Shown here in pieces: positions 2,199-42,642 of a stretch of DNA of 45,458 nucleotides. The DNA is from Pseudomonas phage vB_PseudoP-SA22, in sequence record OP793496.1, one strand, 5' to 3'. The notes below the pieces were generated by a model. The model had not been told where the DNA came from. It did no database searches and worked only from the letters and a program-made list of their open reading frames with translations. A program made the translations under genes and the position numbers. How positions within the stretch are numbered: the stretch's first letter is position 1; each line of letters starts with the position of its first letter.

Positions 2199-2227
2199 TT
2201 GACAAGGTATCCAAAATGTAGTATAAT
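2199..2227 (+). promoter_or_regulatory. Perfect-consensus sigma70 promoter TTGACA-17-TATAAT
   Basis: cTTGACAaggtatccaaaatgtagTATAATag; downstream leader conserved with the 17.06-kb promoter. Confidence 0.8.
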
Positions 2228-2393: not shown

Positions 2394-2422
2394 TTGACAA
2401 AATAGAAAAAGTGTGATATAAT
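2394..2422 (+). promoter_or_regulatory. Perfect-consensus sigma70 promoter with extended -10 (TGTGaTATAAT), 40 nt upstream of the tRNA cluster
   Basis: cTTGACAaaatagaaaaagtgtgaTATAATag. Confidence 0.8.
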
Positions 2423-5148: not shown

Positions 5149-7266
5149 ATGGCTAAGCGTCGTAAGATCAAGCCAATGGATGATGAACAGGTACTTCGTC
5201 ATCTAGACCAACTTGTGAATGACGCTCTAGACTTCAACTCTTCGGAACTATCCAAGCAACGTTCTGAGGCCCTAAAGTATTACTTTGGTGAGCCCTTCGG
5301 TAATGAACGCCCTGGTAAGTCCGGGATTGTATCTAGGGACGTCCAAGAGACCGTAGATTGGATTATGCCTTCTCTTATGAAGGTGTTCACGTCTGGTGGT
5401 CAAGTAGTTAAATATGAGCCTGATACTGCCGAGGATGTTGAGCAGGCAGAGCAAGAGACTGAGTATGTGAACTACCTCTTCATGCGTAAGAATGAGGGGT
5501 TCAAGGTAATGTTCGACTGGTTCCAAGACACCCTCATGATGAAGACTGGGGTTGTTAAGGTCTATGTAGAAGAGGTCCTGAACCCTACCTTCGAACGATT
5601 CTCTGGTCTCTCTGAGGAAATGGTAGCGGATATCCTGGCTGATCCAGACACTGAGATTCTAGCACAGAGTGTGGACGAGGATGGAACCTACAGCATTAAA
5701 ATTCGCAAGGACAAGAAGAAGCGAGAGATTAAGGTCACCTGTATCAAGCCTGAGAACTTCCTGGTTGATCGGTTGGCTACCTGTATCGATGATGCTCGCT
5801 TCCTTTGTCACCGAGAGAAGTACACTGTAAGCGACCTACGGCTCCTGGGGGTTCCCGAGGATGTACTGGATGAGCTTCCATACGATGAGTATGAGTTCTC
5901 TGATAGTCAGCCAGAAAGGTTGGTACGTGATAACTTCGATATGACTGGCCAACTCCAGTACAACTCTGGGGATGATGCTGAAGCCAACCGTGAGGTATGG
6001 GCCTCTGAGTGCTACACCCTTCTGGACGTAGATGGGGATGGTATCTCTGAGTTGCGCCGTATCCTGTACGTGGGCGACTACATCATCAGCAACGAGCCTT
6101 GGGATTGCCGTCCCTTCGCTGACCTGAATGCCTATCGAATTGCCCATAAGTTCCACGGGATGAGTGTCTACGATAAGATCCGAGACATTCAAGAGATCCG
6201 TTCGGTGCTCATGCGCAACATCATGGACAACATCTACCGGACCAACCAAGGGCGCTCTGTAGTCCTGGATGGACAGGTTAACCTCGAAGACTTGCTGACC
6301 AATGAGGCAGCGGGTATCGTTCGGGTTAAGGCCATGAACTCTATCATGCCTCTGGAGACTCCACAGCTGTCTGGGGAAGTCTACGGTATGCTAGATCGTC
6401 TAGAGGCAGACAGGGGTAAGCGGACAGGTATCACTGACCGTACCCGAGGCCTAGATCAAAACACCCTACACTCTAACCAAGCGGCTATGAGTGTGAACCA
6501 GTTGATGACTGCTGCTGAGCAACAGATTGACTTGATTGCCCGGATGTTTGCAGAGACTGGTGTTAAGCGTTTGTTCCAACTTCTGCATGACCATGCCATT
6601 AAGTACCAGAATCAGGAAGAGGTCTTCCAGCTACGAGGCAAGTGGGTTGCTATTAACCCTGCCAACTGGCGAGAGAGATCCGATCTGACGGTTACCGTTG
6701 GTATTGGCAACATGAACAAAGACCAGCAGATGCTCCACCTTATGCGTATCTGGGAAATGGCCCAGGCTGTAGTAGGGGGTGGTGGTCTCGGGGTCCTAGT
6801 CTCTGAGCAGAACCTTTATAACATCCTTAAGGAAGTCACAGAGAACGCTGGGTATAAAGACCCGGATCGCTTCTGGACTAACCCGGATTCCCCTGAAGCT
6901 CAACGGGCTAAGGCCATCAGAGAGCAGAAGGAAGCACAACCTAAGCCTGAAGATATCAAAGCCCAAGCTGATGCCCAACGTGCCCAATCGGACGCTATGG
7001 CTAAGCAAGCGGAGGCTCAGATGAAGCAGGTAGAGGCTCAGATCCGACTGGCTGAGATCGAACTGAAGAAGCAAGAGGCTGTCCTTCAGCAGAGAGAAAT
7101 GGCCCTTAAGGAAGCGGAACTACAACTTGAGCGTGATCGTTTCACTTGGGAACGGGCTCGTAACGAAGCGGAGTATCATCTTGAGGCTACTCAGGCTCGG
7201 GCTGCTTATATCGGAGACGGTAAGGTACCTGAGACTAAGAAGCCCGCTAAGGCAGTGAGGAAATAA
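5149..7266 (+). CDS. Portal protein with long C-terminal coiled-coil barrel
   Basis: 705 aa, position between TerL and scaffold; C-terminal 120 aa Ala/Gln/Glu heptads (AQADAQRAQSDAMAKQAEAQMKQVEAQIRLAEIELKK). Confidence 0.8.
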   Translation: MAKRRKIKPMDDEQVLRHLDQLVNDALDFNSSELSKQRSEALKYYFGEPFGNERPGKSGIVSRDVQETVDWIMPSLMKVFTSGGQVVKYEPDTAEDVEQAEQETEYVNYLFMRKNEGFKVMFDWFQDTLMMKTGVVKVYVEEVLNPTFERFSGLSEEMVADILADPDTEILAQSVDEDGTYSIKIRKDKKKREIKVTCIKPENFLVDRLATCIDDARFLCHREKYTVSDLRLLGVPEDVLDELPYDEYEFSDSQPERLVRDNFDMTGQLQYNSGDDAEANREVWASECYTLLDVDGDGISELRRILYVGDYIISNEPWDCRPFADLNAYRIAHKFHGMSVYDKIRDIQEIRSVLMRNIMDNIYRTNQGRSVVLDGQVNLEDLLTNEAAGIVRVKAMNSIMPLETPQLSGEVYGMLDRLEADRGKRTGITDRTRGLDQNTLHSNQAAMSVNQLMTAAEQQIDLIARMFAETGVKRLFQLLHDHAIKYQNQEEVFQLRGKWVAINPANWRERSDLTVTVGIGNMNKDQQMLHLMRIWEMAQAVVGGGGLGVLVSEQNLYNILKEVTENAGYKDPDRFWTNPDSPEAQRAKAIREQKEAQPKPEDIKAQADAQRAQSDAMAKQAEAQMKQVEAQIRLAEIELKKQEAVLQQREMALKEAELQLERDRFTWERARNEAEYHLEATQARAAYIGDGKVPETKKPAKAVRK

Positions 7267-11553: not shown

Positions 11554-13095
11554 ATGGCCCTAGAGAGACAAGAGGTCAAGAACCCTACGGGGATTGTGAC
11601 CGATATCGCCCCCGCTGACCTGCCGCTGGAGAAATGGTCCTTCGGGAACAACGTCCGGTTTAAGAACGGTAAGGCTCAGAAGGTTCTGGGCCATTCCCCC
11701 ATCTTTGATACTGCCCAGGCCCCTATCTTGGATATGTTCCCATTCATTCGGAACAACATCCCATACTGGCTCTTGTGCTCAGAAAAGAGGCTTTACCTGG
11801 CAGATGGGACTACCATCATTGATGTGTCCCCAGGTCCATACTCTGCGAGTGTAACCAACCGGTGGTCTGTAGGTTCCTTCAATGGAGTTATCTTTGCTAA
11901 CGATGGGGTTAACCCTCCCCACCACCTACCACCAACTGAGAGCGTGTTTAGGGTTCTACCTAACTTCCCAGCGAACACAACCTTTAGACGTCTTAAGTCC
12001 TTCAAGAGCTTCTTGGTTGGCTTGAATGTAACGTCTAACTCTATTGAAATGCCCCAGATGGTCTGGTGGAGTACCTCGGCAGATGCTGGTGGTGTACCGG
12101 CCTCTTGGGACCCAACAGACCCTACCAAAGATGCTGGACAGAACACCTTGGCTGATACCAATGGTGCTATCGTGGATGGTGTGAAGCTTCGTGACTCCTT
12201 CATCATCTACAAGGAAGACTCGGTATACTCCATGCGGTACATCGGTGGTCTGTACATCTTCCAATTCCAGCAGCTGTTTAATGACGTAGGTATCCTCGGT
12301 CCTAACTGCGCTATAGAGTTCGATGGTAACCACTTTGTTGTAGGTCATGGTGACGTCTATGTCCACAACGGTGTACAGAAGCAGTCCGTGATTGATGCTC
12401 AGGTCCGTAAGTTCTTCTTCTCGGATATCAACCCGGATAACTACCAACGGACCTTTGTGCTAGCTGACCATGTGAACACTGAAATGTGGGTATGCTACTC
12501 CTCGACTCGATCTGAGCCTGGGAAGCATTGCGATAGGGCTATCATTTGGAACTGGAAGGAGAACACTTGGAGTATCCGAGACCTCCCTAACGTCCTAAGT
12601 GGAGCCTACGGCATCATTGACCCTAAGACTTCTAACCTCTGGGATGACGACCCCAACCCCTGGGATACCGATACTTCGGTCTGGGGTGAAGGCTCTTATA
12701 ACCCAGCAAAGTCCAGTATGATCTTCTCGTCTTTCCAGGATAAGAAGTTGTTCCTCTTCGGTAATAACTCTACATTCTCTGGGCAGAACTTCGTTAGTAC
12801 CCTTGAGAGATCCGATATCTATCTTGGGGATGACCGAATGATGAAGACTGTGAGTGCTATCATCCCGCATATCACGGGTAACGGCACCTGCAACATCTGG
12901 GTTGGTAATGCTCAGGTACAAGGTTCTGGTATTCGGTGGAAGGGCCCCTACCCATACCGGATTGGCCAGGACTATAAGATTGACACTAAACATGTGGGCC
13001 GGTACATAGCCTTGAAGTTCGACTTCTCCTCAGAGGGTGACTGGTGCTTCAACGGATACACTATTGAAATGGCCCCGAAGGCAGGTATGCGATGA
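11554..13095 (+). CDS. Tail structural protein (513 aa)
   Basis: Position and size within structural module; no motif recognised. Confidence 0.45.
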   Translation: MALERQEVKNPTGIVTDIAPADLPLEKWSFGNNVRFKNGKAQKVLGHSPIFDTAQAPILDMFPFIRNNIPYWLLCSEKRLYLADGTTIIDVSPGPYSASVTNRWSVGSFNGVIFANDGVNPPHHLPPTESVFRVLPNFPANTTFRRLKSFKSFLVGLNVTSNSIEMPQMVWWSTSADAGGVPASWDPTDPTKDAGQNTLADTNGAIVDGVKLRDSFIIYKEDSVYSMRYIGGLYIFQFQQLFNDVGILGPNCAIEFDGNHFVVGHGDVYVHNGVQKQSVIDAQVRKFFFSDINPDNYQRTFVLADHVNTEMWVCYSSTRSEPGKHCDRAIIWNWKENTWSIRDLPNVLSGAYGIIDPKTSNLWDDDPNPWDTDTSVWGEGSYNPAKSSMIFSSFQDKKLFLFGNNSTFSGQNFVSTLERSDIYLGDDRMMKTVSAIIPHITGNGTCNIWVGNAQVQGSGIRWKGPYPYRIGQDYKIDTKHVGRYIALKFDFSSEGDWCFNGYTIEMAPKAGMR

Positions 13096-15520: not shown

Positions 15521-17048
15521 TCCTATGGCCAGCATGGCTTATGAAGGGTCCCCAATTCGCCCTAGCATCCTTCGGGCTGCTCAGAATGAACTGGATATGG
15601 CGCGAATCGCAAGGAACAAACTGCCGCTGGCTGTAGAGGGCTCAGGTATTCCTGATCGTGTCCGTCGTGCTGCTCAGGCAGCCCTGGAGAACCCAGAGCG
15701 TTGGTCCCGTGCAGCCCAAGAGGTTGCACCTGCGGCTGAAGCTACTGGTCGTGGTGCCTTGGGTCGTATCGCAGGTATCCTTGGTGGTCCTGTTGGTGTA
15801 GGTGTTCAGGCTGCTGTAACCCCTGCCGACATTGGTGACCAAGAGCGTACTCGTGCTGAGGAAATGGCTCAGGCTGCTCAGGCAGTAGAGAATATGGGTC
15901 CCGAGGTTGCCCAGAGTGCTAACCAATGGGCCCAGGGTGTAGGCCAGAGGGCAGCTCAGAAGGCCACAGGAGGCCCCCAGGGAGCCGGTCTATTGTCTTA
16001 CGGTTTTACCCCTAACCAACCCTCTATCGAACCTGAAATAGCCCCTGAGGTGGCCTCAGAGGCCGGTGCAGCGGTAGCAGAGGAAGAAGAGGCTAACCGT
16101 CAGGTGATCCAACAGGGTGCTATCGAAGGTCTCCGTAGTGGAGCCGTAAGCCGTCCTGAAATGGCCCAGGCTGTAGTCGAGGCTGATGCCCAGCGGGAAG
16201 GTGTAGAGCTTAAACCTGAGGAACTTAAGACTCGGGTTAATGAAGAGCTCACCCAGATGAGGACTATGGATAATGATGACCTGTCTCGTTATGTATCTTA
16301 CGCTCTCATTGGTACTGGTCTTCTGGCTTCGGCCCTAGACAAGACTGGTAAGGCTGGGGATATGTTCGCTGCTTCCTATGAGCGTCAGCTTGATCGTAAC
16401 CTCCAGGCTGGTATCAACCAACAGAAGATGGCTGCTGCTGCTGCTGATCGTCAGATTAAAGAGAAGGATCTGGAACGCAAGGTTGCTAAGGATAAGTCTG
16501 ATGAGCGTCTGGGGATTGGTAACCTAGAGGTTAAGCGGGGAACTCTGGAAGAAACCTCTCGGAAGAATGAGGGTCTTCTGTCTAAATGGGAAAAACAGGC
16601 TGCTGTAGAACGGGCCAAGCTTGCCCTAACCCAGCGTGGTCAAGACCTAGCTACCCAACGGGCTCAGCTCCAGGCTGAAACCGCTAGACGTGGCCAGGAT
16701 ATGTCTCAAGAGAATGCTCAGCTTAGTTCTGCGGTACGTCTCAAGACTGCCAAGATCAGTGCTGCTGCACGTAAGGCTGCTGCTTCGGCTTCCCGTGGTG
16801 AGGCTATCACTACCAAGGATGCCAATGAGTTGGTCAAGGGTGTCTCTGGTTCGGATCTGGTAGGTGGTGCTAAGATTGGTGAACAAGACCAGTCGGCTAT
16901 CTCCCAGAAGCTTCGGAACCACCTGAGGCAGAATCCTGGGGCTGACCCCGTTACCTTCGTACAGCAGGAAGCGGCTAAGCTACAGAAGCAACCGTCGGGT
17001 CTTTTTGGCTGGGGGTCGGGTATTTTGAGTCGTCCTGCTCCTAAGTGA
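15510..17048 (+). CDS. Ala/Gln-rich internal virion / ejection protein (512 aa)
   Basis: Low-complexity coiled-coil composition typical of podovirus internal core proteins. Confidence 0.45.
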   Translation: MEVNPMASMAYEGSPIRPSILRAAQNELDMARIARNKLPLAVEGSGIPDRVRRAAQAALENPERWSRAAQEVAPAAEATGRGALGRIAGILGGPVGVGVQAAVTPADIGDQERTRAEEMAQAAQAVENMGPEVAQSANQWAQGVGQRAAQKATGGPQGAGLLSYGFTPNQPSIEPEIAPEVASEAGAAVAEEEEANRQVIQQGAIEGLRSGAVSRPEMAQAVVEADAQREGVELKPEELKTRVNEELTQMRTMDNDDLSRYVSYALIGTGLLASALDKTGKAGDMFAASYERQLDRNLQAGINQQKMAAAAADRQIKEKDLERKVAKDKSDERLGIGNLEVKRGTLEETSRKNEGLLSKWEKQAAVERAKLALTQRGQDLATQRAQLQAETARRGQDMSQENAQLSSAVRLKTAKISAAARKAAASASRGEAITTKDANELVKGVSGSDLVGGAKIGEQDQSAISQKLRNHLRQNPGADPVTFVQQEAAKLQKQPSGLFGWGSGILSRPAPK

Positions 17049-17058
17049 TAAAAGGTAC

Positions 17059-17087
17059 TTGACAAGTTATTAAAACTGTGGTATAAT
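17059..17087 (+). promoter_or_regulatory. Perfect-consensus sigma70 promoter TTGACA-17-TATAAT (extended TGTGg) with about 115-nt leader homologous to the 2.2-kb promoter leader
   Basis: cTTGACAagttattaaaactgtggTATAATag; shared downstream blocks ctataggc.cttaagatt, ggttatcttaagatagtcttaag, attccagcaaaa. Confidence 0.8.
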
Positions 17088-21286: not shown

Positions 21287-21643
21287 ATGGCAGGTTATAT
21301 CGCTGACAACGACGGCAACAGTGTATTCGTTATTCAATCGAAAGCTATTGCTGTACGCAATGAAGATGGGACCCTTCGACAAGTCATTGGCCCGAAAGAC
21401 TTTGAGCCAGTGAAGTGGGAGGATATTGAGGGGAAGCCTAAGCTTCTGGAGGTGGGTGCTAAGGCTAGTGAGGCTAAACCAGGTAACTGGAAGCCTAAGG
21501 CTAGCGAAGTGAGTGGCCTATATGAAGCCATTGCGGCTTCCATCCAGGATAAGATATCTGAGATCCCCGTGGCTTCCTATACGGATACTCACGAGGCACT
21601 CGTGGATAAGTTCAATACACTACTGAACGCTCTCCGGAGCTAA
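21287..21643 (+). CDS. Last gene of rightward unit (118 aa)
   Basis: ORF track; followed by terminator. Confidence 0.5.
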   Translation: MAGYIADNDGNSVFVIQSKAIAVRNEDGTLRQVIGPKDFEPVKWEDIEGKPKLLEVGAKASEAKPGNWKPKASEVSGLYEAIAASIQDKISEIPVASYTDTHEALVDKFNTLLNALRS

Positions 21644-29189: not shown

Positions 29190-29218
29190 ATTATATCACA
29201 CTTTGCTGGATTTGTCAA
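29190..29218 (-). promoter_or_regulatory. Perfect-consensus sigma70 promoter TTGACA-17-TATAAT (extended TGTGa) with conserved leader AACCTTAAGGTGCCGGGGGTTGCTTT
   Basis: Minus strand cTTGACAaatccagcaaagtgtgaTATAATaaccttaagg. Confidence 0.8.
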
Positions 29219-32940: not shown

Positions 32941-33338
32941 TATACTGCTCCTTGTCGTTTTGCCAGGTGTGCCTTCCAGTCGCCATCCTTGACGATATCC
33001 ATCGCCATGTGGCTATCCTGATGGTACACCAGGGCCTTGATGCGTTCCCCATTGATTCGGAAATCCTTGAGGGTACGATCATACCAACCCGGATAACCCT
33101 CTAGGGCATCCAGGTTCTCCAGCATTTCATCCCCCGCTTCGCCCTCGGGGAGTTGCCAGATTTCACCTACGATGAGGTCAGCACGGGAGGCGAAGGAGAG
33201 GATGGGGAAGCCGCCAGCGGAGTACATCAGACCCCGCTCGCAGGATACAGCATTGCCGATGAACTCGGCCCCTTCCAGAAGGTAGTGGTTGTACAAACCT
33301 GACAGGAGAGTACCATAAACGAAAACACGAACAGCCAT
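32940..33338 (-). CDS. Gamma-glutamyl cyclotransferase-like (AIG2/GGCT fold) protein
   Basis: N-terminal VFVYGTLLSGLYNHYLL (YGTL motif) and conserved acidic region EGEAGDEMLENLDALEGYP; 132 aa, typical size. Confidence 0.6.
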   Translation of the reverse strand: MAVRVFVYGTLLSGLYNHYLLEGAEFIGNAVSCERGLMYSAGGFPILSFASRADLIVGEIWQLPEGEAGDEMLENLDALEGYPGWYDRTLKDFRINGERIKALVYHQDSHMAMDIVKDGDWKAHLAKRQGAV

Positions 33339-34219
33339 TAGATAGTCTCCTCGAAGATTTTGCTGAAGCCCTTGACGTATGCCTCCAGGGCGCTGCCTTC
33401 AGCGTCCAGACCTGGGGCGGTGTTGATCTCCAGGACAAAAGCCCGGCCAGTGGCGTGCTGGAAGATAATGTCTACTGCACCGAAGTCCAGTCCGGCCACC
33501 TGGATAGCCTCGGCAGCCGCAGACAGTGCCTGCTCTGCACCTTCACGGTCAGCCGCATCATTCACCCCATAGACCCAACCGCCGGCTACGTTACGGACGA
33601 TGCTGTTGCCGTTATCTTCCTCGCCATCGGCGCGACGACGGAGCTTGACTTGCAGGAGGACTGCTTCCCCACGGATGACGTGGACTCGGAACTCGGTACG
33701 CTTACCAACGATGCCCTGGGTAAACAGTTGTGCCCTGGTGATAACCTCCGGGATGTGGGTGTGACCGTAGATGTGTACCGGGTAGTGACCCTGACGGCGA
33801 AGGTTGTCGATTGCAGTAACCTCGGCGTCGTTGATCGAACATACCAGATGGATACCACGACCGCTATGGCCGTTCAGATCAGTACGTGCATACATACGGC
33901 CAGTGATGTTGAGGACACCCAGGGCGTCTTCCCATCGCTCTGTCCAACGGGGAATCAGGTGAGGGGCATTGGCCTCGAAGTGGCGGAAGAACTCCAGCTT
34001 GTTAGAGCAGCGGTGAACAACTGCCGGGTCGTTGAGGAACACAGGGGCAATATCCCGGAGTCGGTGAGCCTCTGCACCAACGGTACCCCAGTTGATTACC
34101 GCAGTACCCGCACGACCCCGATAGGTAGACCCCTCGGAGCGAAGGATTCGAGCACCCAGGGCGTTACGAAGAGCGACAGCACCAGCAGAGGGGCGGGAAC
34201 CTTTATAGATATAGAACAT
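33338..34219 (-). CDS. ATP-grasp carboxylate-amine ligase (RimK/glutathione-synthetase-like)
   Basis: C-terminal catalytic signature DIIFQHATGRAFVLEINTAPGL (E-x-N...PG), VRNVAGGWVYGVND; 293 aa. Confidence 0.7.
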   Translation of the reverse strand: MFYIYKGSRPSAGAVALRNALGARILRSEGSTYRGRAGTAVINWGTVGAEAHRLRDIAPVFLNDPAVVHRCSNKLEFFRHFEANAPHLIPRWTERWEDALGVLNITGRMYARTDLNGHSGRGIHLVCSINDAEVTAIDNLRRQGHYPVHIYGHTHIPEVITRAQLFTQGIVGKRTEFRVHVIRGEAVLLQVKLRRRADGEEDNGNSIVRNVAGGWVYGVNDAADREGAEQALSAAAEAIQVAGLDFGAVDIIFQHATGRAFVLEINTAPGLDAEGSALEAYVKGFSKIFEETI

Positions 34220-34253
34220 GGCAAATCTCCTGTTTCTGTTGAGGGTAGTGAAG

Positions 34254-34339
34254 CCAGCAATAGCCCCTGGAATCCTAAGTTAGATCCCATGTACGCATCT
34301 TAGGAACCGGCATGGGTCGGCCAGGGGCTATTACTAACG
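34254..34339. repeat. Conserved long stem-loop element, copy A (CCAGCAATAGCCCCTGG ... CCAGGGGCTATTACTAACG) with nested inner inverted repeats
   Basis: 12-bp perfect outer stem; shares both arms with element at 40594..40637; sits directly upstream of SD of the ATP-grasp gene on the - strand. Confidence 0.7.
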
Positions 34340-34346
34340 CACTACC

Positions 34347-34568
34347 TTACTCGAAGTAGTCTTCGAAGAGTCGGTCGATAGCTTCCGCAATGACTACCGG
34401 GGCCGGTACCAGGAATTCCTCGTCCGGGTTGGCATCATTGAGTTCCTGCTCCTTGACTCGACGAATCGACTGGATCTTGTCCAGGGTGTCACGGGAGAAG
34501 GGATACTTACGGGTTGCGTCGGTCTCCATCTGGATCACTACTTGACGCTTCATCGTTACTTGGGTCAT
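34347..34568 (-). CDS. Hypothetical 73-aa protein, last gene of the amidoligase operon
   Basis: ORF track; 10-nt gap to GATase gene. Confidence 0.4.
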   Translation of the reverse strand: MTQVTMKRQVVIQMETDATRKYPFSRDTLDKIQSIRRVKEQELNDANPDEEFLVPAPVVIAEAIDRLFEDYFE

Positions 34569-34577
34569 TTTGACCTC

Positions 34578-36110
34578 CTATTTATTTTCGATTACACACT
34601 CACCACAGATGAACTCGCACTCATCCAGGCTACCAGTGAACTTGGCACCTTCGTATACCGTCAGATGACGATTACGCTGGTCATATGCGGTTGGGATCTT
34701 CCCGCAAGATGCACATCCCTGGGACACGAAGTCCCGAAAGACATGCACGTTGTTGAAGGTGTGGCCTTGCACCTTCAGGGGGTAGGTGATGTTGGCCGGA
34801 GGGGTGTTCCCCGAGGTGCCGCCGACTTGAACCCTGGGTTTAGAATGGGATTTCGTCTCCGATGAGATCGTTCCAATCCTCAACACTGGGGTAGTCTCCC
34901 CAGGAGTCGGCCGATGCTTTGGGTCCAGGCAGCTTACCGCCAGATCCTCGACAGTAACCTTGAGATCACGGTCTTGGCCGATGAAGTAGGCATTGGATAT
35001 ACTCCCTCGGAGGACGGTGTATCCGTGGACTTTGGCGACGTTGATGCCATGAGCTTCGATGAGAAGGTTTTCTTCACGCTCGATTCCAGTGACAGTTCCG
35101 TATTCGCTTCCGTTTGCGTAGGCCTCGATCTTGACAACATCGAAGGTGACGAGTTGCCGGTGCTTGAAGGTGCTACCTGCTGCGTCGAGGTTGTTGTTGA
35201 TCCGGAGGGTGTTCCTTGCGTACGCATCGCCAGTCGTTCCATACGACGAGCCCGCTTGGCTGCCTTTCGTTCCCGCTTGGCTGCCTTGGCTTCGGCTGTA
35301 GTCATCGTAGTCCGAGACACCGATGTAGCGACTCCACCATGCCGCTGTTTGCCTTTCGCTTTCGGGAATCGGGAGGTCCAGAAACGTGACCGGAGTGGTC
35401 TGGGGTTCTGCACCCTTTCGCACTCCGGCCTCCGTGAACGGGATAGTTACCAGGACTTCGGCCTTCAGTTCAGCGATGGGAGAACGCAGGCGGATCTTAG
35501 CATTGGGTCGCTCCAGGAAAACCTTGAGCATCCCAGGCTCCGATGCCCATACGATGGTCCCGGTGGTGGTAACCGCCATGAACAGAGGACGATCCTCGTT
35601 ACGGATGAAGTTCAGGCTACGTTCCTTGGAATCCCACCAGACAACCGCAGCAGCACCAGAGAACTTCTCCTCGAACGTCTTCTTGGCACCGTGGTTGGCA
35701 ATGGTAGCGCATAGCATGTTGGAATCCACGTTGTACTTATCATTGCCGTCCAGCAGGTGCAGGCCCCAGGTATCTACGGTTCCGTTATGTACCATGGTGA
35801 TGTGGTCTACCTGGAAGGGGTGGGCATTACCATGGTCCGTCTTGTCGCCCATCGTGGCGTAACGGTTGTGACCCATGTAGATGCGAGCCCGACCCTTGTC
35901 CAGGAACTCCTTGGTTTCAGGATCAGCCAGGAAGTCGTAGGCATCTACTGCCCGCTTGTGAATTCCTACCTCGTTCTTAACCGGGTCGATCTTGGCCAAA
36001 CCGGTGGCGTGAGCACCACGGATAATATCCACGGCCAGGAGGGATTTGAGAAGAGCGATTTCGTTATCACTCGCGTTAGTTGTGGCACAGAAGCCTACCA
36101 ATCCACACAT
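34578..36110 (-). CDS. Class-II (Ntn) glutamine amidotransferase fused to an unknown beta-rich domain with C-terminal C4 zinc ribbon
   Basis: MCGLVGF...GAHATGLA...GHNRYATMG with Cys2 nucleophile, as in PurF/GlmS/AsnB N-terminal domains; low-complexity linker SQGSQAGTKGSQAGSS; C-terminal CASCG...CGEC. Confidence 0.75.
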   Translation of the reverse strand: MCGLVGFCATTNASDNEIALLKSLLAVDIIRGAHATGLAKIDPVKNEVGIHKRAVDAYDFLADPETKEFLDKGRARIYMGHNRYATMGDKTDHGNAHPFQVDHITMVHNGTVDTWGLHLLDGNDKYNVDSNMLCATIANHGAKKTFEEKFSGAAAVVWWDSKERSLNFIRNEDRPLFMAVTTTGTIVWASEPGMLKVFLERPNAKIRLRSPIAELKAEVLVTIPFTEAGVRKGAEPQTTPVTFLDLPIPESERQTAAWWSRYIGVSDYDDYSRSQGSQAGTKGSQAGSSYGTTGDAYARNTLRINNNLDAAGSTFKHRQLVTFDVVKIEAYANGSEYGTVTGIEREENLLIEAHGINVAKVHGYTVLRGSISNAYFIGQDRDLKVTVEDLAVSCLDPKHRPTPGETTPVLRIGTISSETKSHSKPRVQVGGTSGNTPPANITYPLKVQGHTFNNVHVFRDFVSQGCASCGKIPTAYDQRNRHLTVYEGAKFTGSLDECEFICGECVIENK

Positions 36111-36121
36111 TGTATTTCTCC

Positions 36122-37297
36122 TTAGTACATATCTGGTTCGATTGTTACGCCGGTATGGCGCTGAAGGTGCTGCGGGTTATCCATGAGCAGTACGAAGGCA
36201 TCTTGAAGAGCCTCTTGGTCCTCCAGAAGGTCTCGTACACGCACTTGGTGACCAATACGACGCAGAGAAGTTACCGCAGTAATCGCCGTATCCAGTCGAA
36301 CCTGGGTACCTGGGACCATTGCCAAGTTGTACCGCTCTGCTGCACCATCGAGTAGTCTGGAGGTAGTAGATCGAGCCAGCAGCAGCCTACGATCCAAAAC
36401 CCTCTGACGCTCACGTTCCTGCTCCCGGAGACGACGCTGACGGTTCTGTTCATCCTCCAGAGGGTCTACCCCGGAGCGAACAAATCCCATGGTTGCTACC
36501 GCGAGAGTAGCACTGGCGATCCCCATCTCACGACCACCTGGAGACATTTCATAGTCCGGAGATACCCCCAGGAAGAACACATCACGGAGATTCACCTCGG
36601 AGAGAACCTTGAGGAACTCTTCCAGCGGGGTTTCTGCGTGAGCCATAGCGAAGGCCTTGAGACACAACATACGCTGCATCAGGCCTACCATCTCCTGCCG
36701 AGTAGTGAGAGCATGGGCCCCACGGAACTCGATGGATCCGAAGTTGTGGGTTACCTGGAGGTTCAAGGCCGAATACTTTGGCCAGGAGGTAAGACCCAAG
36801 ACTTTCTCTCGGTCACCTTCCGGGGCCAGGATACGGCGACCAAAGGTCTGGGCCAGCCAGTCGTTGCTGAAGAACGGGATGCAGAAGTTACTATCCCGAC
36901 GATACGGCTGACAGTGATCGAAGAAAACATCCTCGAATGCCATGTAGGTCAGGACCGTTCGCTCATAAACCGGCCACTCTACGTCCCGCATATCCATGTG
37001 CAGGTGGGTGGAGCAACGGAAGGTGGGGGCCGGAGGGGTTTCTTCCATCGCACTAACGAAGGATTCAACCCGAGTGATTGCCTTCTGGCCAGAGGCGGGA
37101 CCGGAGAAGACATACTCCATACCCTCCCGCAGAGAACCGTCACCCTTCAGATCCCACCCATCCACTTCCGGCCAGTTGTTGAGGCCTTCCAGTTCGACTT
37201 CGAAACCGAAGGAAGCAACCGCAGGCAGTTCCTCGTGGTGTTCCGGGGCAATGATCTGGTTCTTACGGAACCCTATCTGTGTGCCAATAACTGACAT
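36122..37297 (-). CDS. Glutamine-synthetase-like amidoligase (GCS2/YbdK-type carboxylate-amine ligase), paralogue 1
   Basis: N-terminal FGFEVELEG (E-x-E), CSTHLHMDMRD (H-x-H), GSIEFRGAHA (E-x-R): the three signature strands of the GS/GCS2 fold. Confidence 0.6.
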   Translation of the reverse strand: MSVIGTQIGFRKNQIIAPEHHEELPAVASFGFEVELEGLNNWPEVDGWDLKGDGSLREGMEYVFSGPASGQKAITRVESFVSAMEETPPAPTFRCSTHLHMDMRDVEWPVYERTVLTYMAFEDVFFDHCQPYRRDSNFCIPFFSNDWLAQTFGRRILAPEGDREKVLGLTSWPKYSALNLQVTHNFGSIEFRGAHALTTRQEMVGLMQRMLCLKAFAMAHAETPLEEFLKVLSEVNLRDVFFLGVSPDYEMSPGGREMGIASATLAVATMGFVRSGVDPLEDEQNRQRRLREQERERQRVLDRRLLLARSTTSRLLDGAAERYNLAMVPGTQVRLDTAITAVTSLRRIGHQVRVRDLLEDQEALQDAFVLLMDNPQHLQRHTGVTIEPDMY

Positions 37298-37842
37298 AGC
37301 AAGTCCTCCTGGTTCTTGAATTGTTCATCTGCGGACAGTCGGCCATCTACCATCTGACCAACCTTCACCCCCTTCCAGTGAACTACCCCATCCTTGATGA
37401 AGAAGTCCCGGTGGGAGGGAGCAGAGATCATTTCCTCGGCCTGGGTGAAGATTCGGATCATCATTTCGCCGGTGATAGCCTGTTGGCCATGGTTCAGCAA
37501 GATGTTCCGTGGATCTACACCCTTACGCTGGGTCCGGTTGTTCACGAGGAATGATACATAGGTATCACGAACCCCACGGCCAAAGACGTCATAGTACCCA
37601 CTGGAGGGCCGCACGCTTTCTACCTCGCTGTAGACAACCCCACCGTAGTAGTTACTGCCGTCGGGTCGGTACACGTTGCCAAGGAGACGAAACCCATCGA
37701 ATTGACGGTCGTCACCAATGGACTCGGTATCGTCCACGTACACTACCCGAGGCTCGCCGTCCACCCGGAAGAAGGCATAGGTGGAGGAGTAGTACATGTT
37801 GAAGTCTCCGGACAACCGATGGCGATTATTCAGGTCATTCAT
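37273..37842 (-). CDS. Hypothetical protein (189 aa) within amidoligase operon
   Basis: Overlapping start/stop with both neighbours. Confidence 0.45.
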   Translation of the reverse strand: MNDLNNRHRLSGDFNMYYSSTYAFFRVDGEPRVVYVDDTESIGDDRQFDGFRLLGNVYRPDGSNYYGGVVYSEVESVRPSSGYYDVFGRGVRDTYVSFLVNNRTQRKGVDPRNILLNHGQQAITGEMMIRIFTQAEEMISAPSHRDFFIKDGVVHWKGVKVGQMVDGRLSADEQFKNQEDLLCQLLAHR

Positions 37843-38635
37843 ATACCACCCCCAGCGCTTTAAGTGCAGCTACCGCCGCGGCGCCGTCGTTCTCGTTGAT
37901 GATTCGCTGGACTTCATCGCCAGATACGATGGACTTGTACTCCTCCAGGAGGTGCTTGGAGGTGTAAGCCCGTACTGCCATTTCATAGACCCACTCGGTC
38001 AGATCGACAGAGAAGATCCAGAAGTTCGACAGGCTACGGTACTCGCCGCCGTAGGGCTTATAGCGCATTGCGCCAGCCTTGCCGTACAGCTTCTTACGCT
38101 GGGTGTCACCGTCGAGGATGACAGACGCCAGGCCCAGGAGGTAGTCACACATCTGCATGACCTCGCGGGTGTTCGCTTTGGTGACTCGCTCGATGTGGCT
38201 GAAGCCGATATGGACGTGGCCGCCAGCAGTTCGCAGGGTCGGAGGGGCATCCTTCGGCATCACGTTCTGACGACGAGTCCAGCAGTTGTAGTCCGGCTCG
38301 CAACCGAAGACGTAAGCCTGGGGACCGAAGCTGCGGAGGAGTTCCTCGTCGTACAGGTGAGACGACAGGTTCTCGATGATGTTCATGCCGAAGGGGTGGA
38401 GCATCTGGGCACCAAGGAGTCGGACGGAAATGATCCGCTTGACGAACTCTTCCTTGGTGCTGGCCGGGTCGATGTTGTACTCCAGAAGAACGTTGTCTTC
38501 TTGGACGGCACCACCGGCTACAGCCAAGGGCGCTTCCTTGGTTCCACCGATGAAGCCGATGACGCTCTGGGGGTTACGGTCGTAGCCGACGAAAACTTCG
38601 GGATCTGCACCGATCAGGGGGATTGCGTTGTTCAT
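37835..38635 (-). CDS. Glutamine-synthetase-like amidoligase, paralogue 2 (shorter)
   Basis: LIGADPEVFVG (E), TAGGHVHIGF (H-x-H), YGGEYRSLS (E-x-R). Confidence 0.55.
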   Translation of the reverse strand: MNNAIPLIGADPEVFVGYDRNPQSVIGFIGGTKEAPLAVAGGAVQEDNVLLEYNIDPASTKEEFVKRIISVRLLGAQMLHPFGMNIIENLSSHLYDEELLRSFGPQAYVFGCEPDYNCWTRRQNVMPKDAPPTLRTAGGHVHIGFSHIERVTKANTREVMQMCDYLLGLASVILDGDTQRKKLYGKAGAMRYKPYGGEYRSLSNFWIFSVDLTEWVYEMAVRAYTSKHLLEEYKSIVSGDEVQRIINENDGAAAVAALKALGVVYE

Positions 38636-39588
38636 TGCATGTTCTCCAGTTTTTCGAGGATTTCGGGGATGCTGTATTGGCTGGTGGGTACGACCTCGGA
38701 CCTTTCCCGACCTGGGTCACCTACGTCAATGGTGATTGGGGCCATGATGGAAAGGATTCGGTCATTAGGTACACCTTCAAGACCGTCGCATTCGATCAGG
38801 TAATCATCCTTGGTATACCCCTGCCACAACTCAGCGTCGTGATGCTTGAGCTTGTCCTTGAACTCTTCGCGAGTCCGCTCATGGATGCTCTTAATATCGA
38901 AGTAGGTGATATTCTTGTACCCACCTACGATACCATCCATGACCTCGCTTATGTAGCTGTCATCCACCTCCCAGCCGTGGCTCTCGCAGCCCTCCCGGTA
39001 TTCACCAGCAGTCACCGGGAACATGGCCGGATAGCTGTCGCAATGAGCAGTGCTACCTACCTGGGCACAAGCCGCGAGGGTGAGAATCTCTGCATTGCAG
39101 CCCAGGATTTTATCACGATTTTCCTGGGTGATGCGACGCATGGAATCACCTACACACCACAAGCGATCTCCCATTCGGAGAGCACAGATGATGGCCGATG
39201 CGTTCTTCCTGAGGTCCACCCGTACATACACTGCCTGCCGGCGTCCTGGGGGTGAGAAGTGGTTGGGATCACTGAGATTCTGGAGATCATCGTCGTAATT
39301 CCACCAACGGGTAGGCCAGTCGATAGAAGCCGAGAGGATACCGCCATCGGTAATCCTGTTGACCAGATCACTGTTCAGGAACTCCACCAGTTTACCAGAG
39401 GTATTCTCGTGGGTAGATACCAGCAGGTGGCCAACCCCGGTAACCCACCGGTCGCCCCCAACGTCGGAGGTCCGGTCGCAATAGGCCCCGAAGCAGTTTG
39501 TATATTCGGCCATCATTTTGACCGAGTAGTGGTGTACCACAGAGCCCTCGGCATCATAGTACACATTATGGGCTGCATACATTCCCAT
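38632..39588 (-). CDS. Hypothetical protein (318 aa), Cys/His-rich, within amidoligase operon
   Basis: ATGA overlap with paralogue 2; AGGAG SD. Confidence 0.45.
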   Translation of the reverse strand: MGMYAAHNVYYDAEGSVVHHYSVKMMAEYTNCFGAYCDRTSDVGGDRWVTGVGHLLVSTHENTSGKLVEFLNSDLVNRITDGGILSASIDWPTRWWNYDDDLQNLSDPNHFSPPGRRQAVYVRVDLRKNASAIICALRMGDRLWCVGDSMRRITQENRDKILGCNAEILTLAACAQVGSTAHCDSYPAMFPVTAGEYREGCESHGWEVDDSYISEVMDGIVGGYKNITYFDIKSIHERTREEFKDKLKHHDAELWQGYTKDDYLIECDGLEGVPNDRILSIMAPITIDVGDPGRERSEVVPTSQYSIPEILEKLENMQ

Positions 39589-39606
39589 TTGATTTCTCCT
39601 TGGTTG

Positions 39607-40569
39607 TCAGAAGTTTTTCTCGATGAAGTCTTCGAGGGCCGCATAGACAGCCTGTTCGCCGCTTCGCCAGCCAATCTCACCCATGATCCCCAGCATGACT
39701 ACTCCGTATTTTTCACAGGTATGAAGATAAAGGCGGATGAAACCTCCCACCTCGCTATCTACGGTCATGTAGGGGTCTTTCTTTCCGAAGACGGTTGGCT
39801 GAGGGGCTATGGTAACCACCTCCACCTTGTCCAACTGAATCTTCAGGAATTCAGACCGCCAGGGTGTACTCCTTACCCACTCACGTCCACCTGGGGCATC
39901 CCGATTGGCCATCCAACGACCGAATCGCATAGACTCTTCAGCGGATTGGATGTGGATATCCCCCTTCTTGAGATCATCCCAATCGCTACTGAACATGTAG
40001 TTGGAGAGGGGATACCCGGTGTAGCCATTGGCTATCAGCCCGTGGAAGGACATTGCGAGGTAGGACTTCCAGAAGCCATGCTTCTCAGCAAGCTTCAGAT
40101 GAACCTCCTCTTCACGACCTAGGTAATCGAGTCCGCTGGAGATCATCTTGAAGAGGAATTTCATGATGGGGTACCAGGAATCCAGGGTGTGTACCTTGGG
40201 GTTGAAGTAGATACCGCAGACCCCTTCCTTTCCGTGTTGGGTGGGGGAAATCATTTCCGGCCCGCAGACGTACTTCACGAAGGGGGAATCTTTGGCCTTG
40301 CTTTCGTAAGACCAGAAGTGGACCTTCGGGATCTTGAAGGCCTTGCCGCCGATGGTGATGGTCTTGAGTTCACCTTGGGTACACTTGTTGAGTGCATCGA
40401 CGAACTTCTTGCTTCGACGGGAGCAGATGAAGGTCCAACCGTCGAGCTTATAGCCGTGGGTTACCGGACCTTCCATGGTACCGAAGCAGGAGGAAGAGGT
40501 CATCACCTTGAGTGCCTTAACCCCAGACTCCTTGGACTTCATACCGAAGGCATACTTGATACGGGCCAT
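39607..40569 (-). CDS. Hypothetical enzyme-sized protein (320 aa), first gene of amidoligase operon
   Basis: AGGAG SD directly after stem-loop element B. Confidence 0.45.
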   Translation of the reverse strand: MARIKYAFGMKSKESGVKALKVMTSSSCFGTMEGPVTHGYKLDGWTFICSRRSKKFVDALNKCTQGELKTITIGGKAFKIPKVHFWSYESKAKDSPFVKYVCGPEMISPTQHGKEGVCGIYFNPKVHTLDSWYPIMKFLFKMISSGLDYLGREEEVHLKLAEKHGFWKSYLAMSFHGLIANGYTGYPLSNYMFSSDWDDLKKGDIHIQSAEESMRFGRWMANRDAPGGREWVRSTPWRSEFLKIQLDKVEVVTIAPQPTVFGKKDPYMTVDSEVGGFIRLYLHTCEKYGVVMLGIMGEIGWRSGEQAVYAALEDFIEKNF

Positions 40570-40593
40570 TTGTTTTCTCCTTGGTTGAGTTAG

Positions 40594-40637
40594 CCAGCAA
40601 TACCCCCAGGACAGGAATACTAGGGGTATTACTAGCG
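40594..40637. repeat. Conserved long stem-loop element, copy B (CCAGCAATACCCCCAGG ... CTAGGGGTATTACTAGCG)
   Basis: 14/17-bp stem, 9-nt loop; arms homologous to element A; immediately 5' of the operon first gene SD on - strand. Confidence 0.7.
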
Positions 40638-40657
40638 ACCTCTAAGTTACTTAGAAG

Positions 40658-40780
40658 GTGCCACGGCGCTGTTGCTTGCCTTTGGTCGGTGCCGACACCT
40701 TGGTGGCCTTGAGGTTGCCGTTCAGGGTCAATTCACCGTTGGAGCAGAGACGCTCATAGAAAACCTTACGCTTACCCATT
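40658..40780 (-). CDS. Possible 40-aa basic peptide
   Basis: Manual translation MGKRKVFYERLCSNGELTLNGNLKATKVSAPTKGKQQRRGTF; below ORF-track cutoff. Confidence 0.25.
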
Positions 40781-42613: not shown

Positions 42614-42642
42614 ATTATACCACACTTTCAGCAGAATGTCAA
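42614..42642 (-). promoter_or_regulatory. Perfect-consensus sigma70 promoter TTGACA-17-TATAAT (extended TGTGg), leader homologous to the 29.2-kb promoter
   Basis: Minus strand cTTGACAttctgctgaaagtgtggTATAATaaccttaaggtgtccggggttgcttt. Confidence 0.8.

Follow-up and report, generated by a model that had tools for sequence, protein, structure and literature searches.

Two hairpins in the amidoligase region

This work concerns two long stem-loops, copy A and copy B, in the genome of Pseudomonas phage vB_PseudoP-SA22 (record OP793496.1), the 45,458 nucleotides (nt) of which are called the window here and are numbered from their first letter. The phage is a Bruynoghevirus (LUZ24-like) podophage of Pseudomonas. 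Phages of this group have no RNA polymerase of their own and depend on that of the host, so the T7-like setting supposed in the initial annotation of this DNA does not apply. The 7.7 kb around the hairpins are 94-97% identical to many P. aeruginosa Bruynoghevirus podophages (LUZ24, PaP4, DL54 and others); the window runs in the reverse orientation of the LUZ24 record, and the genes around the hairpins lie on its minus strand. According to the annotations of relatives, these genes encode gp14/gp15-like proteins, a COOH-NH2 ligase, an amidoligase, a glutamine amidotransferase, a small DUF7195 protein, an ATP-grasp protein and a gamma-glutamyl cyclotransferase, with Pfam support for the ligase, amidoligase, amidotransferase, DUF7195 and cyclotransferase families. 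The operon had been described as lying exactly between the two copies, but only the homologues of gp14-gp20, seven genes of one functional module, are found there, and the ATP-grasp and cyclotransferase genes, which belong to the same amidoligase module, sit downstream of copy A. Upstream of copy B the window keeps extra genes that are deleted in LUZ24.

A check of the sequence located both copies where the initial annotation had placed them (Table 1). Each has a stem of 17-18 bp, A/U-rich in a box at its base (UUAGUAAUA / UAUUGCUGG) and GC-rich in its upper part (GCCCCUGG/CCAGGGGC in copy A, CCCCUAG/CUGGGGG in copy B), and both duplexes are perfect, without an internal loop. The stems are thus long, as had been noticed, with a length in the sense RNA at the top of the proposed range of 12-17 bp or just above it. 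Folding of the minus strand, a check suggested beforehand, gave stable structures of -42.6 kcal/mol for copy A (z -4.1) and -29.6 kcal/mol for copy B (z -5.3), in agreement with structures formed on the sense RNA. The plus-strand folds are weaker (-37.2 and -16.8 kcal/mol, respectively), because three to four U.G pairs turn into C.A mismatches. A covariance model was made from the stems and used to scan the window, related phages and matches from IMG/VR. In the window it found exactly two sites, copy A with 44.2 bits and copy B with 41.1 bits (E about 1e-7), against 17-20 bits for the antisense strand. Motif and regular-expression searches of the genome gave no third copy, which bears out the statement that nothing similar occurs elsewhere in the window; weak box-like matches at 16032 and 16800 were dropped, having no support from the covariance model. 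Among relatives, the model found two copies each in LUZ24 and in p2-10_Or1 (PaP3 clade) and one in tf. Rfam returned nothing at either hairpin at E values up to 10 and, at gathering score, only tRNAs in the whole window.

Transcript ends and conservation of the hairpins

Transcript ends have been mapped in LUZ24 by ONT-cappable-seq (Putzeys et al. 2024, microLife, PMC10914365; Table S4 with the preprint, bioRxiv 10.1101/2023.10.13.562163), and all the transcript mapping considered here comes from that phage. Table S4 lists the 3' ends T006 at 5415(+) and T011 at 11755(+). In the LUZ24 sequence these positions are the C of UAUUGC|UGG, T006 in the 3' arm of the copy B orthologue and T011 in that of the copy A orthologue; the equivalent window positions are 40597 and 34257. 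These LUZ24 sites are direct orthologues of the two hairpins, with identical or nearly identical arms and the same flanking genes, and with ends mapped at both of them the elements do punctuate the polycistronic RNA, as had been proposed earlier. The transcription units starting at P006, P007 and P008 finish at T006, with some reads continuing for 170-300 nt (10.1101/2023.10.13.562163). Short transcripts also end at T006; one of them, a 166 nt RNA (LUZ24 5249-5415), is listed by the authors as an ncRNA (non-coding RNA) candidate derived from the 5' untranslated region of gp14, a product of premature termination. The same tables give no transcription start site on the hairpin strand between LUZ24 6630 and 17248. 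The window likewise has no consensus sigma70 promoter on the minus strand between the perfect one at 42614-42642, which is the likely source of the transcripts reaching both hairpins, and the next one, ending at 29218. The genes that follow each hairpin thus lack a promoter of their own, and their expression must come from read-through.

The position of the mapped ends within the hairpins is informative. T006 and T011 end about 6 nt (6-7) past the GC-rich core. Other LUZ24 ends show the same kind of spacing: this distance is 7 nt for the canonical terminators T020 and T023, 7 nt for the U-poor hairpins T012 and T019, and 8 nt for T003. The 3' end of T019 also lies beyond a weaker lower stem. 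The ends at T006 and T011 are themselves paired, falling 3 nt within the complete duplex of 17 bp, and the whole hairpin is kept on the mapped RNA. This argues against simple trimming by a 3' exonuclease, which would stall outside the duplex, and trimming alone is therefore an unlikely origin of the ends. Three hairpins of LUZ24, T019 (21440-21477), T012 (15925-15963) and T003 (1900-1941), are GC-rich and lack any U-tract, with ends 7-8 nt from the core; thus, 3'-end formation that needs only a hairpin seems to be general in this phage.

Both sites were extracted from 16 loci of four phage lineages, and the arms of 16 distinct elements were aligned, anchored on the box and joined by an artificial loop. 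Standard pairs occupy 97.8% of the alignment cells, and nine of the 17 pairs show changes on both sides; none of 500 shuffles matched the observed values, and slid registers were only 34-55% paired. Pairs 1, 2 and 5 are U.G almost throughout, a sign of selection at the level of the sense RNA. The conserved A/U-rich box comprises the nine basal pairs; it reads as given above in P. aeruginosa phages and UUUGUAAUA / UAUUGCAGA in tf (Krylovvirus), in NV1 and UFV-P2 (Vicosavirus) and in Rembedalsseter. The upper stem varies freely and is still paired (GCCCCUGG, ACCCCUGG, CCCCUAGG, UCCCUAGG, ACCUCGGA, CCCUCUGG, AGCCCCG and GUCAUUGC). The interior measures 5-66 nt over all elements and is unrelated between genera. 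In P. aeruginosa phages, copy A is 90-96% identical, against 73-76% for its flanks. Gene order is syntenic on both sides of the elements in tf, NV1, UFV-P2 and Rembedalsseter. Relatives with the operon thus keep the elements in both sequence and structure, which supports this part of the initial annotation.

The exceptions are found at site B. UFV-P2 keeps the box there. In NV1 and Rembedalsseter, A5/U5-6 tracts take its place, GAAAAAGCCCCGG...CCCGGGCUUUUUUG in the former (3' side also as CCCGGGCUUUUUUGAGAUGC) and GUGAAAAGCCCC...GGGGCUUUUUGC in the latter (3' side also as GGGGCUUUUUGCAAAGAUG), with the architecture and the downstream context (AGAUG) of UFV-P2; in tf the site is an 11 bp hairpin with UUU after it. 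Where NV1 and Rembedalsseter depart from the box, they do so by compensatory changes (U-A to A-U, G-C to U.G and U.G to G.U). With such tracts in its place, the box itself reads as the interrupted A-tract and U-tract of an extended terminator hairpin. In the same sense, the initial annotation was right that no U-tract follows the full stem, but the lower part of the 3' arm is itself U-rich (UAUUGCU). The box has a U-tract score of about 2.0, whereas the NV1 and Rembedalsseter versions reach 3.7-4.3 and the canonical LUZ24 terminators T023 and T020 score 3.3-5.4.

Metagenomic sequences added no lineage to this picture. IMG/VR searches with the two flanking genes returned three contigs only, all of them Bruynoghevirus. 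The pattern TTGTAATA-N45-75-TATTGCAGA matched at least 120 stretches of IMG/VR; among these, the 80 listed loci re-scored by the covariance model were at chance level only (at most 24 bits, against 41-45) and held no further lineage. Eleven low-GC contigs, mostly from sample 3300045988, have in common a stretch of about 68 nt that matches the box pattern with an identical, weak score of 19.5 bits. Probably this is a chance match to a sequence that is repeated within some unrelated group of phages.

Copy A differs from copy B in its large interior. The interleaved inner repeats that had been noticed there are present as the helices S1 (CCCAUG/CAUGGG) and S2 (UCCUAAG/CUUAGGA), which together exceed 299 of 300 shuffles. 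They had been taken to exclude each other, but this does not follow, since the order a, b, a', b' is the topology of a pseudoknot, which can hold both. In the alignment of P. aeruginosa phages, variation of the interior falls almost only outside S1 and S2, and no double compensatory change is seen in either helix. The copy A interiors of tf, NV1 and Rembedalsseter are unrelated, and there the pseudoknot test did no better than shuffles. Judged from sequence, S1 and S2 may form a pseudoknot that is kept only in P. aeruginosa phages.

Probable leaky termination and the alternative explanations

Taken together, these data make it moderately probable that both hairpins are hairpin-dependent, deliberately leaky terminators (attenuators) in a long middle operon that is read by the host sigma70 RNA polymerase. 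The GC-rich upper stem would fold in the nascent RNA; after about 6 nt more, inside the interrupted U-tract UAUUGC, the polymerase would let go of some of the transcripts. The upstream A/U-rich box would then pair with this tract, leaving the released RNA with a duplex of 14-17 bp at its end, and this base-paired 3' end should shield it from 3' exonucleases. Other polymerases would read through, and the downstream genes would be expressed, so that the hairpins would grade expression along a single sigma70-driven unit of about 13 kb. The stable GC-rich stem-loop expected of a terminator is present in the sense RNA (fold z -4.1/-5.3, with covariation), and in the LUZ24 orthologues the listed RNA 3' ends, 6 nt past the GC core, lie within the 6-9 nt past the stem at which a terminator is expected to release its RNA. 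A 3' end inside the duplex is what termination with a later zipping-up of the A/U box would produce. We infer, for our part, that the ends arise by termination and not by cleavage, that the leakiness is by design and that the basal stem stabilises the RNA.

Several observations weigh against this interpretation. All of the transcript mapping comes from LUZ24 and none from the window phage. ARNold called neither T006 nor T011 intrinsic (Table S4, 10.1101/2023.10.13.562163), and a simple terminator scan of the window called neither hairpin. After the GC core, where an intrinsic terminator would have a U-rich run of about 7-9 nt, there is no continuous U-tract, only four U in the seven nt of UAUUGCU. 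The LUZ24 data set contains termination-site calls also inside genes where there is no hairpin (10.1101/2023.10.13.562163), so a mapped 3' end is not a proof of termination, and the data as tabulated do not separate termination from endonucleolytic cleavage. Moreover, the interior of copy A measures 50-66 nt in every lineage, which is unusual for a simple terminator, and the exact basal box with its U.G pairs is kept across genera more than a weak terminator would obviously need.

Cleavage, put forward for RNase III in the initial annotation, is one alternative: this enzyme, or another double-strand-specific endoribonuclease, would cut the 3' arm, part the cistrons and leave a protective hairpin on the upstream RNA. 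The long, perfect and conserved duplexes of the sense RNA would suit it, as would 3' ends that map within the duplex to one nucleotide shared by both copies, a lower-stem pairing maintained by selection and downstream genes that lack a promoter. The elements resemble the T7 early-region sites (R1.1 type) in that these too are intergenic hairpins of a polycistronic phage RNA, just before the next ribosome-binding site, that stay on the upstream RNA. However, T7 sites consist of two stems round an internal loop that directs a single cut, and substrates of RNase III in vivo are typically of roughly 20-22 bp, whereas the LUZ24-like duplex is perfect and has 17-18 bp, a borderline length against the two helical turns (around 20 bp) expected of such a site. 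A perfect duplex should be cut in both arms; the mapped RNAs keep the whole hairpin, and the LUZ24 tables, which give 3' ends only and no processed 5' ends, report no 3' end in the 5' arm (10.1101/2023.10.13.562163). Canonical terminators show the same spacing from the GC core, relatives use canonical U-tract terminators at site B, and cleavage leaves the conservation of sequence unexplained. Furthermore, these phages are not T7-like, and we found no literature tying LUZ24 to RNase III. None of the present results speaks specifically for RNase III. Its action is less favoured on account of the short, perfect duplex, the RNAs that retain the entire hairpin and the ordinary terminators found at this place in relatives, and we regard it as unlikely.

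The conservation that cleavage leaves aside would be accounted for if the hairpins were sequence-specific regulatory sites and acted as regulated switches: a factor from the phage or the host would bind the box (GUAAUA / UAUUGC, with its fixed U.G) and adjust read-through (antitermination), the stability of the RNA or the translation of the following gene. Four lineages keep the box, its wobble pairs and several nucleotides 3' of the stem, but vary freely in the upper stem and the interior; the element is far better conserved than its flanks, and a large structured interior is present in copy A of all lineages. Nevertheless, no candidate factor was identified, no Rfam family matches, and the plain A/U tracts of NV1 and Rembedalsseter indicate that the exact sequence is dispensable at site B. 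The temporal classes of PaP3 do not switch at either hairpin: in the PaP3 microarray data the early/middle boundary lies at ORF49/48 or ORF57/56 instead, and the hairpins were rejected as temporal switch points. A regulatory site of this type seems slightly less likely even than cleavage. More doubtful still is the bolder proposal that the box serves a dedicated factor, that the pseudoknot-like interior of copy A is a sensor domain and that read-through is actively switched in infection. If that were true, Pseudomonas podophages that depend on the host polymerase would possess a new device for antitermination or riboregulation, which switches read-through into first the amidoligase genes and then the ATP-grasp and primase-helicase genes.

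Elements acting at the DNA level (cruciforms, LUZ24-type nickase sites, recombination footprints of an acquired cassette or mobile palindromes) are very improbable. Inverted repeats do exist in the DNA too, and the copies flank seven genes of one module, but both the fold and the covariance-model score are strongly strand-asymmetric (U.G to C.A), the nickase consensus is not found at the hairpins, and there are only two copies at fixed sites. The cassette footprint offered in the initial annotation is also contradicted by the synteny across four lineages, by the extension of the module past copy A and by the LUZ24 deletion near copy B, which stops about 30 nt upstream of the hairpin. Palindromes like repetitive extragenic palindromes or miniature inverted-repeat transposable elements were rejected as well, with two copies per genome at the same syntenic sites and no credible copies among the 80 listed IMG/VR matches (host genomes unscanned).

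The hairpins can also be compared with known signals. With canonical intrinsic terminators the hairpins share the GC-rich stem, the RNA 3' end 6-8 nt further on and an A-rich tract that pairs with a U-rich one, and true A5/U5-6 versions occur at site B of relatives; unlike them, they have an interrupted, lower-scoring U-tract, copy A encloses 50 nt within its stem, and termination must be partial. The weak terminators of Bacillus subtilis that are stimulated by NusA and NusG combine a hairpin with an interrupted U-tract and give partial, factor-sensitive termination. By analogy, the phage hairpins with their imperfect U-tract may behave in a similar manner, although host and polymerase differ.

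In part these sites are already published, since both 3' ends are in the supplement of the LUZ24 study and T006 is flagged there as a premature terminator (10.1101/2023.10.13.562163). In the terminator section and the LUZ24 supplementary tables of that study they are listed singly, with no common motif described. Our searches for literature on LUZ24 and RNase III, or on Bruynoghevirus and terminator hairpins, found nothing beyond it. The repetition, the covariation, the conservation across genera and the reading of the box as an interrupted U-tract thus appear to be new with respect to those parts of the study. This is not a new principle, but a refinement of published transcript maps, and the signal is of an ordinary type. 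Phages like LUZ24 have a use in phage therapy and depend wholly on the RNA polymerase of the host; it is poorly described how a single strong promoter supplies about 13 kb of genes for metabolism and replication. Two mapped 3'-end sites that are copies of one conserved, tunable hairpin would offer a handle on graded operon expression, and possibly a compact part for expression engineering in Pseudomonas, a weak terminator combined with a stabilising 3' duplex.

Other features of the window

The coordinates of the hairpins, the flanking genes and the two promoters that delimit the region are given in Table 1.

Table 1. Hairpins, flanking genes and delimiting promoters in the window
Feature	Position	Strand	Description
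sigma70 promoter	42614..42642	-	perfect TTGACA-17-TATAAT, TGTGG upstream of -10; homologue of LUZ24 P006
ORF upstream of copy B	40651..40779	-	open reading frame of 42 aa; strong Shine-Dalgarno; basic C-terminus (KGKQQRRGTF); kept in PaP3 clade
copy B, hairpin	40593..40636	-	between 42-aa ORF and 320-aa gp14-like gene; 17 bp stem, short loop region; orthologue of LUZ24 T006 site
copy B 3' arm	40594..40610	-	CCUGGGGGUAUUGCUGG; predicted RNA 3' end 40597, from LUZ24 T006 at same nucleotide
gene downstream of copy B	39607..40569	-	320 aa, LUZ24 gp14 homologue; Shine-Dalgarno 40582-40576, after 11 nt leader
gene upstream of copy A	34347..34568	-	73 aa, DUF7195, LUZ24 gp20 homologue; stop codon 9 nt before stem
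copy A, long hairpin	34253..34338	-	between DUF7195 gene and ATP-grasp gene; 18 bp closing stem round 50 nt structured interior; orthologue of LUZ24 T011 site
copy A 5' arm	34321..34337	-	UUAGUAAUAGCCCCUGG; A/U-rich basal box, then GC-rich upper stem
copy A interior	34271..34320	-	interleaved helices S1 (34316-34311 with 34291-34286) and S2 (34305-34299 with 34279-34273)
copy A 3' arm	34254..34270	-	CCAGGGGCUAUUGCUGG; lower half UAUUGCU; predicted RNA 3' end 34257 (C of UAUUGC), from T011 in identical LUZ24 arm
gene downstream of copy A	33338..34219	-	293 aa, ATP-grasp/RimK-like in relatives' annotation; Shine-Dalgarno 34231-34226, after 22 nt C/A-rich leader
next sigma70 consensus promoter	29190..29218	-	homologue of LUZ24 P010; bounds about 13.4 kb without other consensus promoter

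The distance from each hairpin to the Shine-Dalgarno of the next gene is within the 10-25 nt stated in the initial annotation, with 22 nt at copy A and 11 nt at copy B. These leaders (34232-34253 and 40583-40593, minus strand) are rich in C and A and have almost no G in any lineage, as in CUUCACUACCCUCAACAGAAAC and CACCAACCCAACCAAAC. They would stay unstructured, perhaps so that the ribosome site is kept open beside a very stable hairpin. Upstream of copy B, an internal deletion of about 330 nt in LUZ24 spares only the last codons of the 42-aa ORF (LUZ24 5330-5375), and the remnant of this region corresponds to the 166 nt ncRNA candidate listed in the LUZ24 study.

The window is circularly permuted with respect to LUZ24 and has a cluster of early promoters at 1192-1522 on the minus strand. 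Five promoters have the perfect TTGACA-17-TATAAT sequence: 42614-42642(-), 29190-29218(-), 17059-17087(+), 2394-2422(+) and 2199-2227(+). An extended -10 element (TGTGG/TGTGA) is present in four of these five, and ten matches with at most two mismatches were counted against about two expected. Just downstream of the last two promoters lies a cluster of four tRNA genes at 2461-2789 on the plus strand (Asn-GTT, Asp-GTC, Tyr-GTA and Pro-TGG), all four of them called by ARAGORN and three by Rfam. At Rfam gathering score no group I intron is detected in the window, while LUZ24 has one in its DNA polymerase gene.

The nickase recognition site (TACT/RTGMC) was considered for the hairpins and rejected: the window has eight sites, none of which overlaps a hairpin, and the arms read TTACTAACG and TTACTAGCG. 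The eight occurrences of the consensus TACTRTGMC (17542, 22223, 26319, 32731, 37588, 41839, 44438 and 45342) compare with 1.15 expected and all lie on the minus strand. This distribution agrees with the localized single-strand interruptions known from phages of this group.

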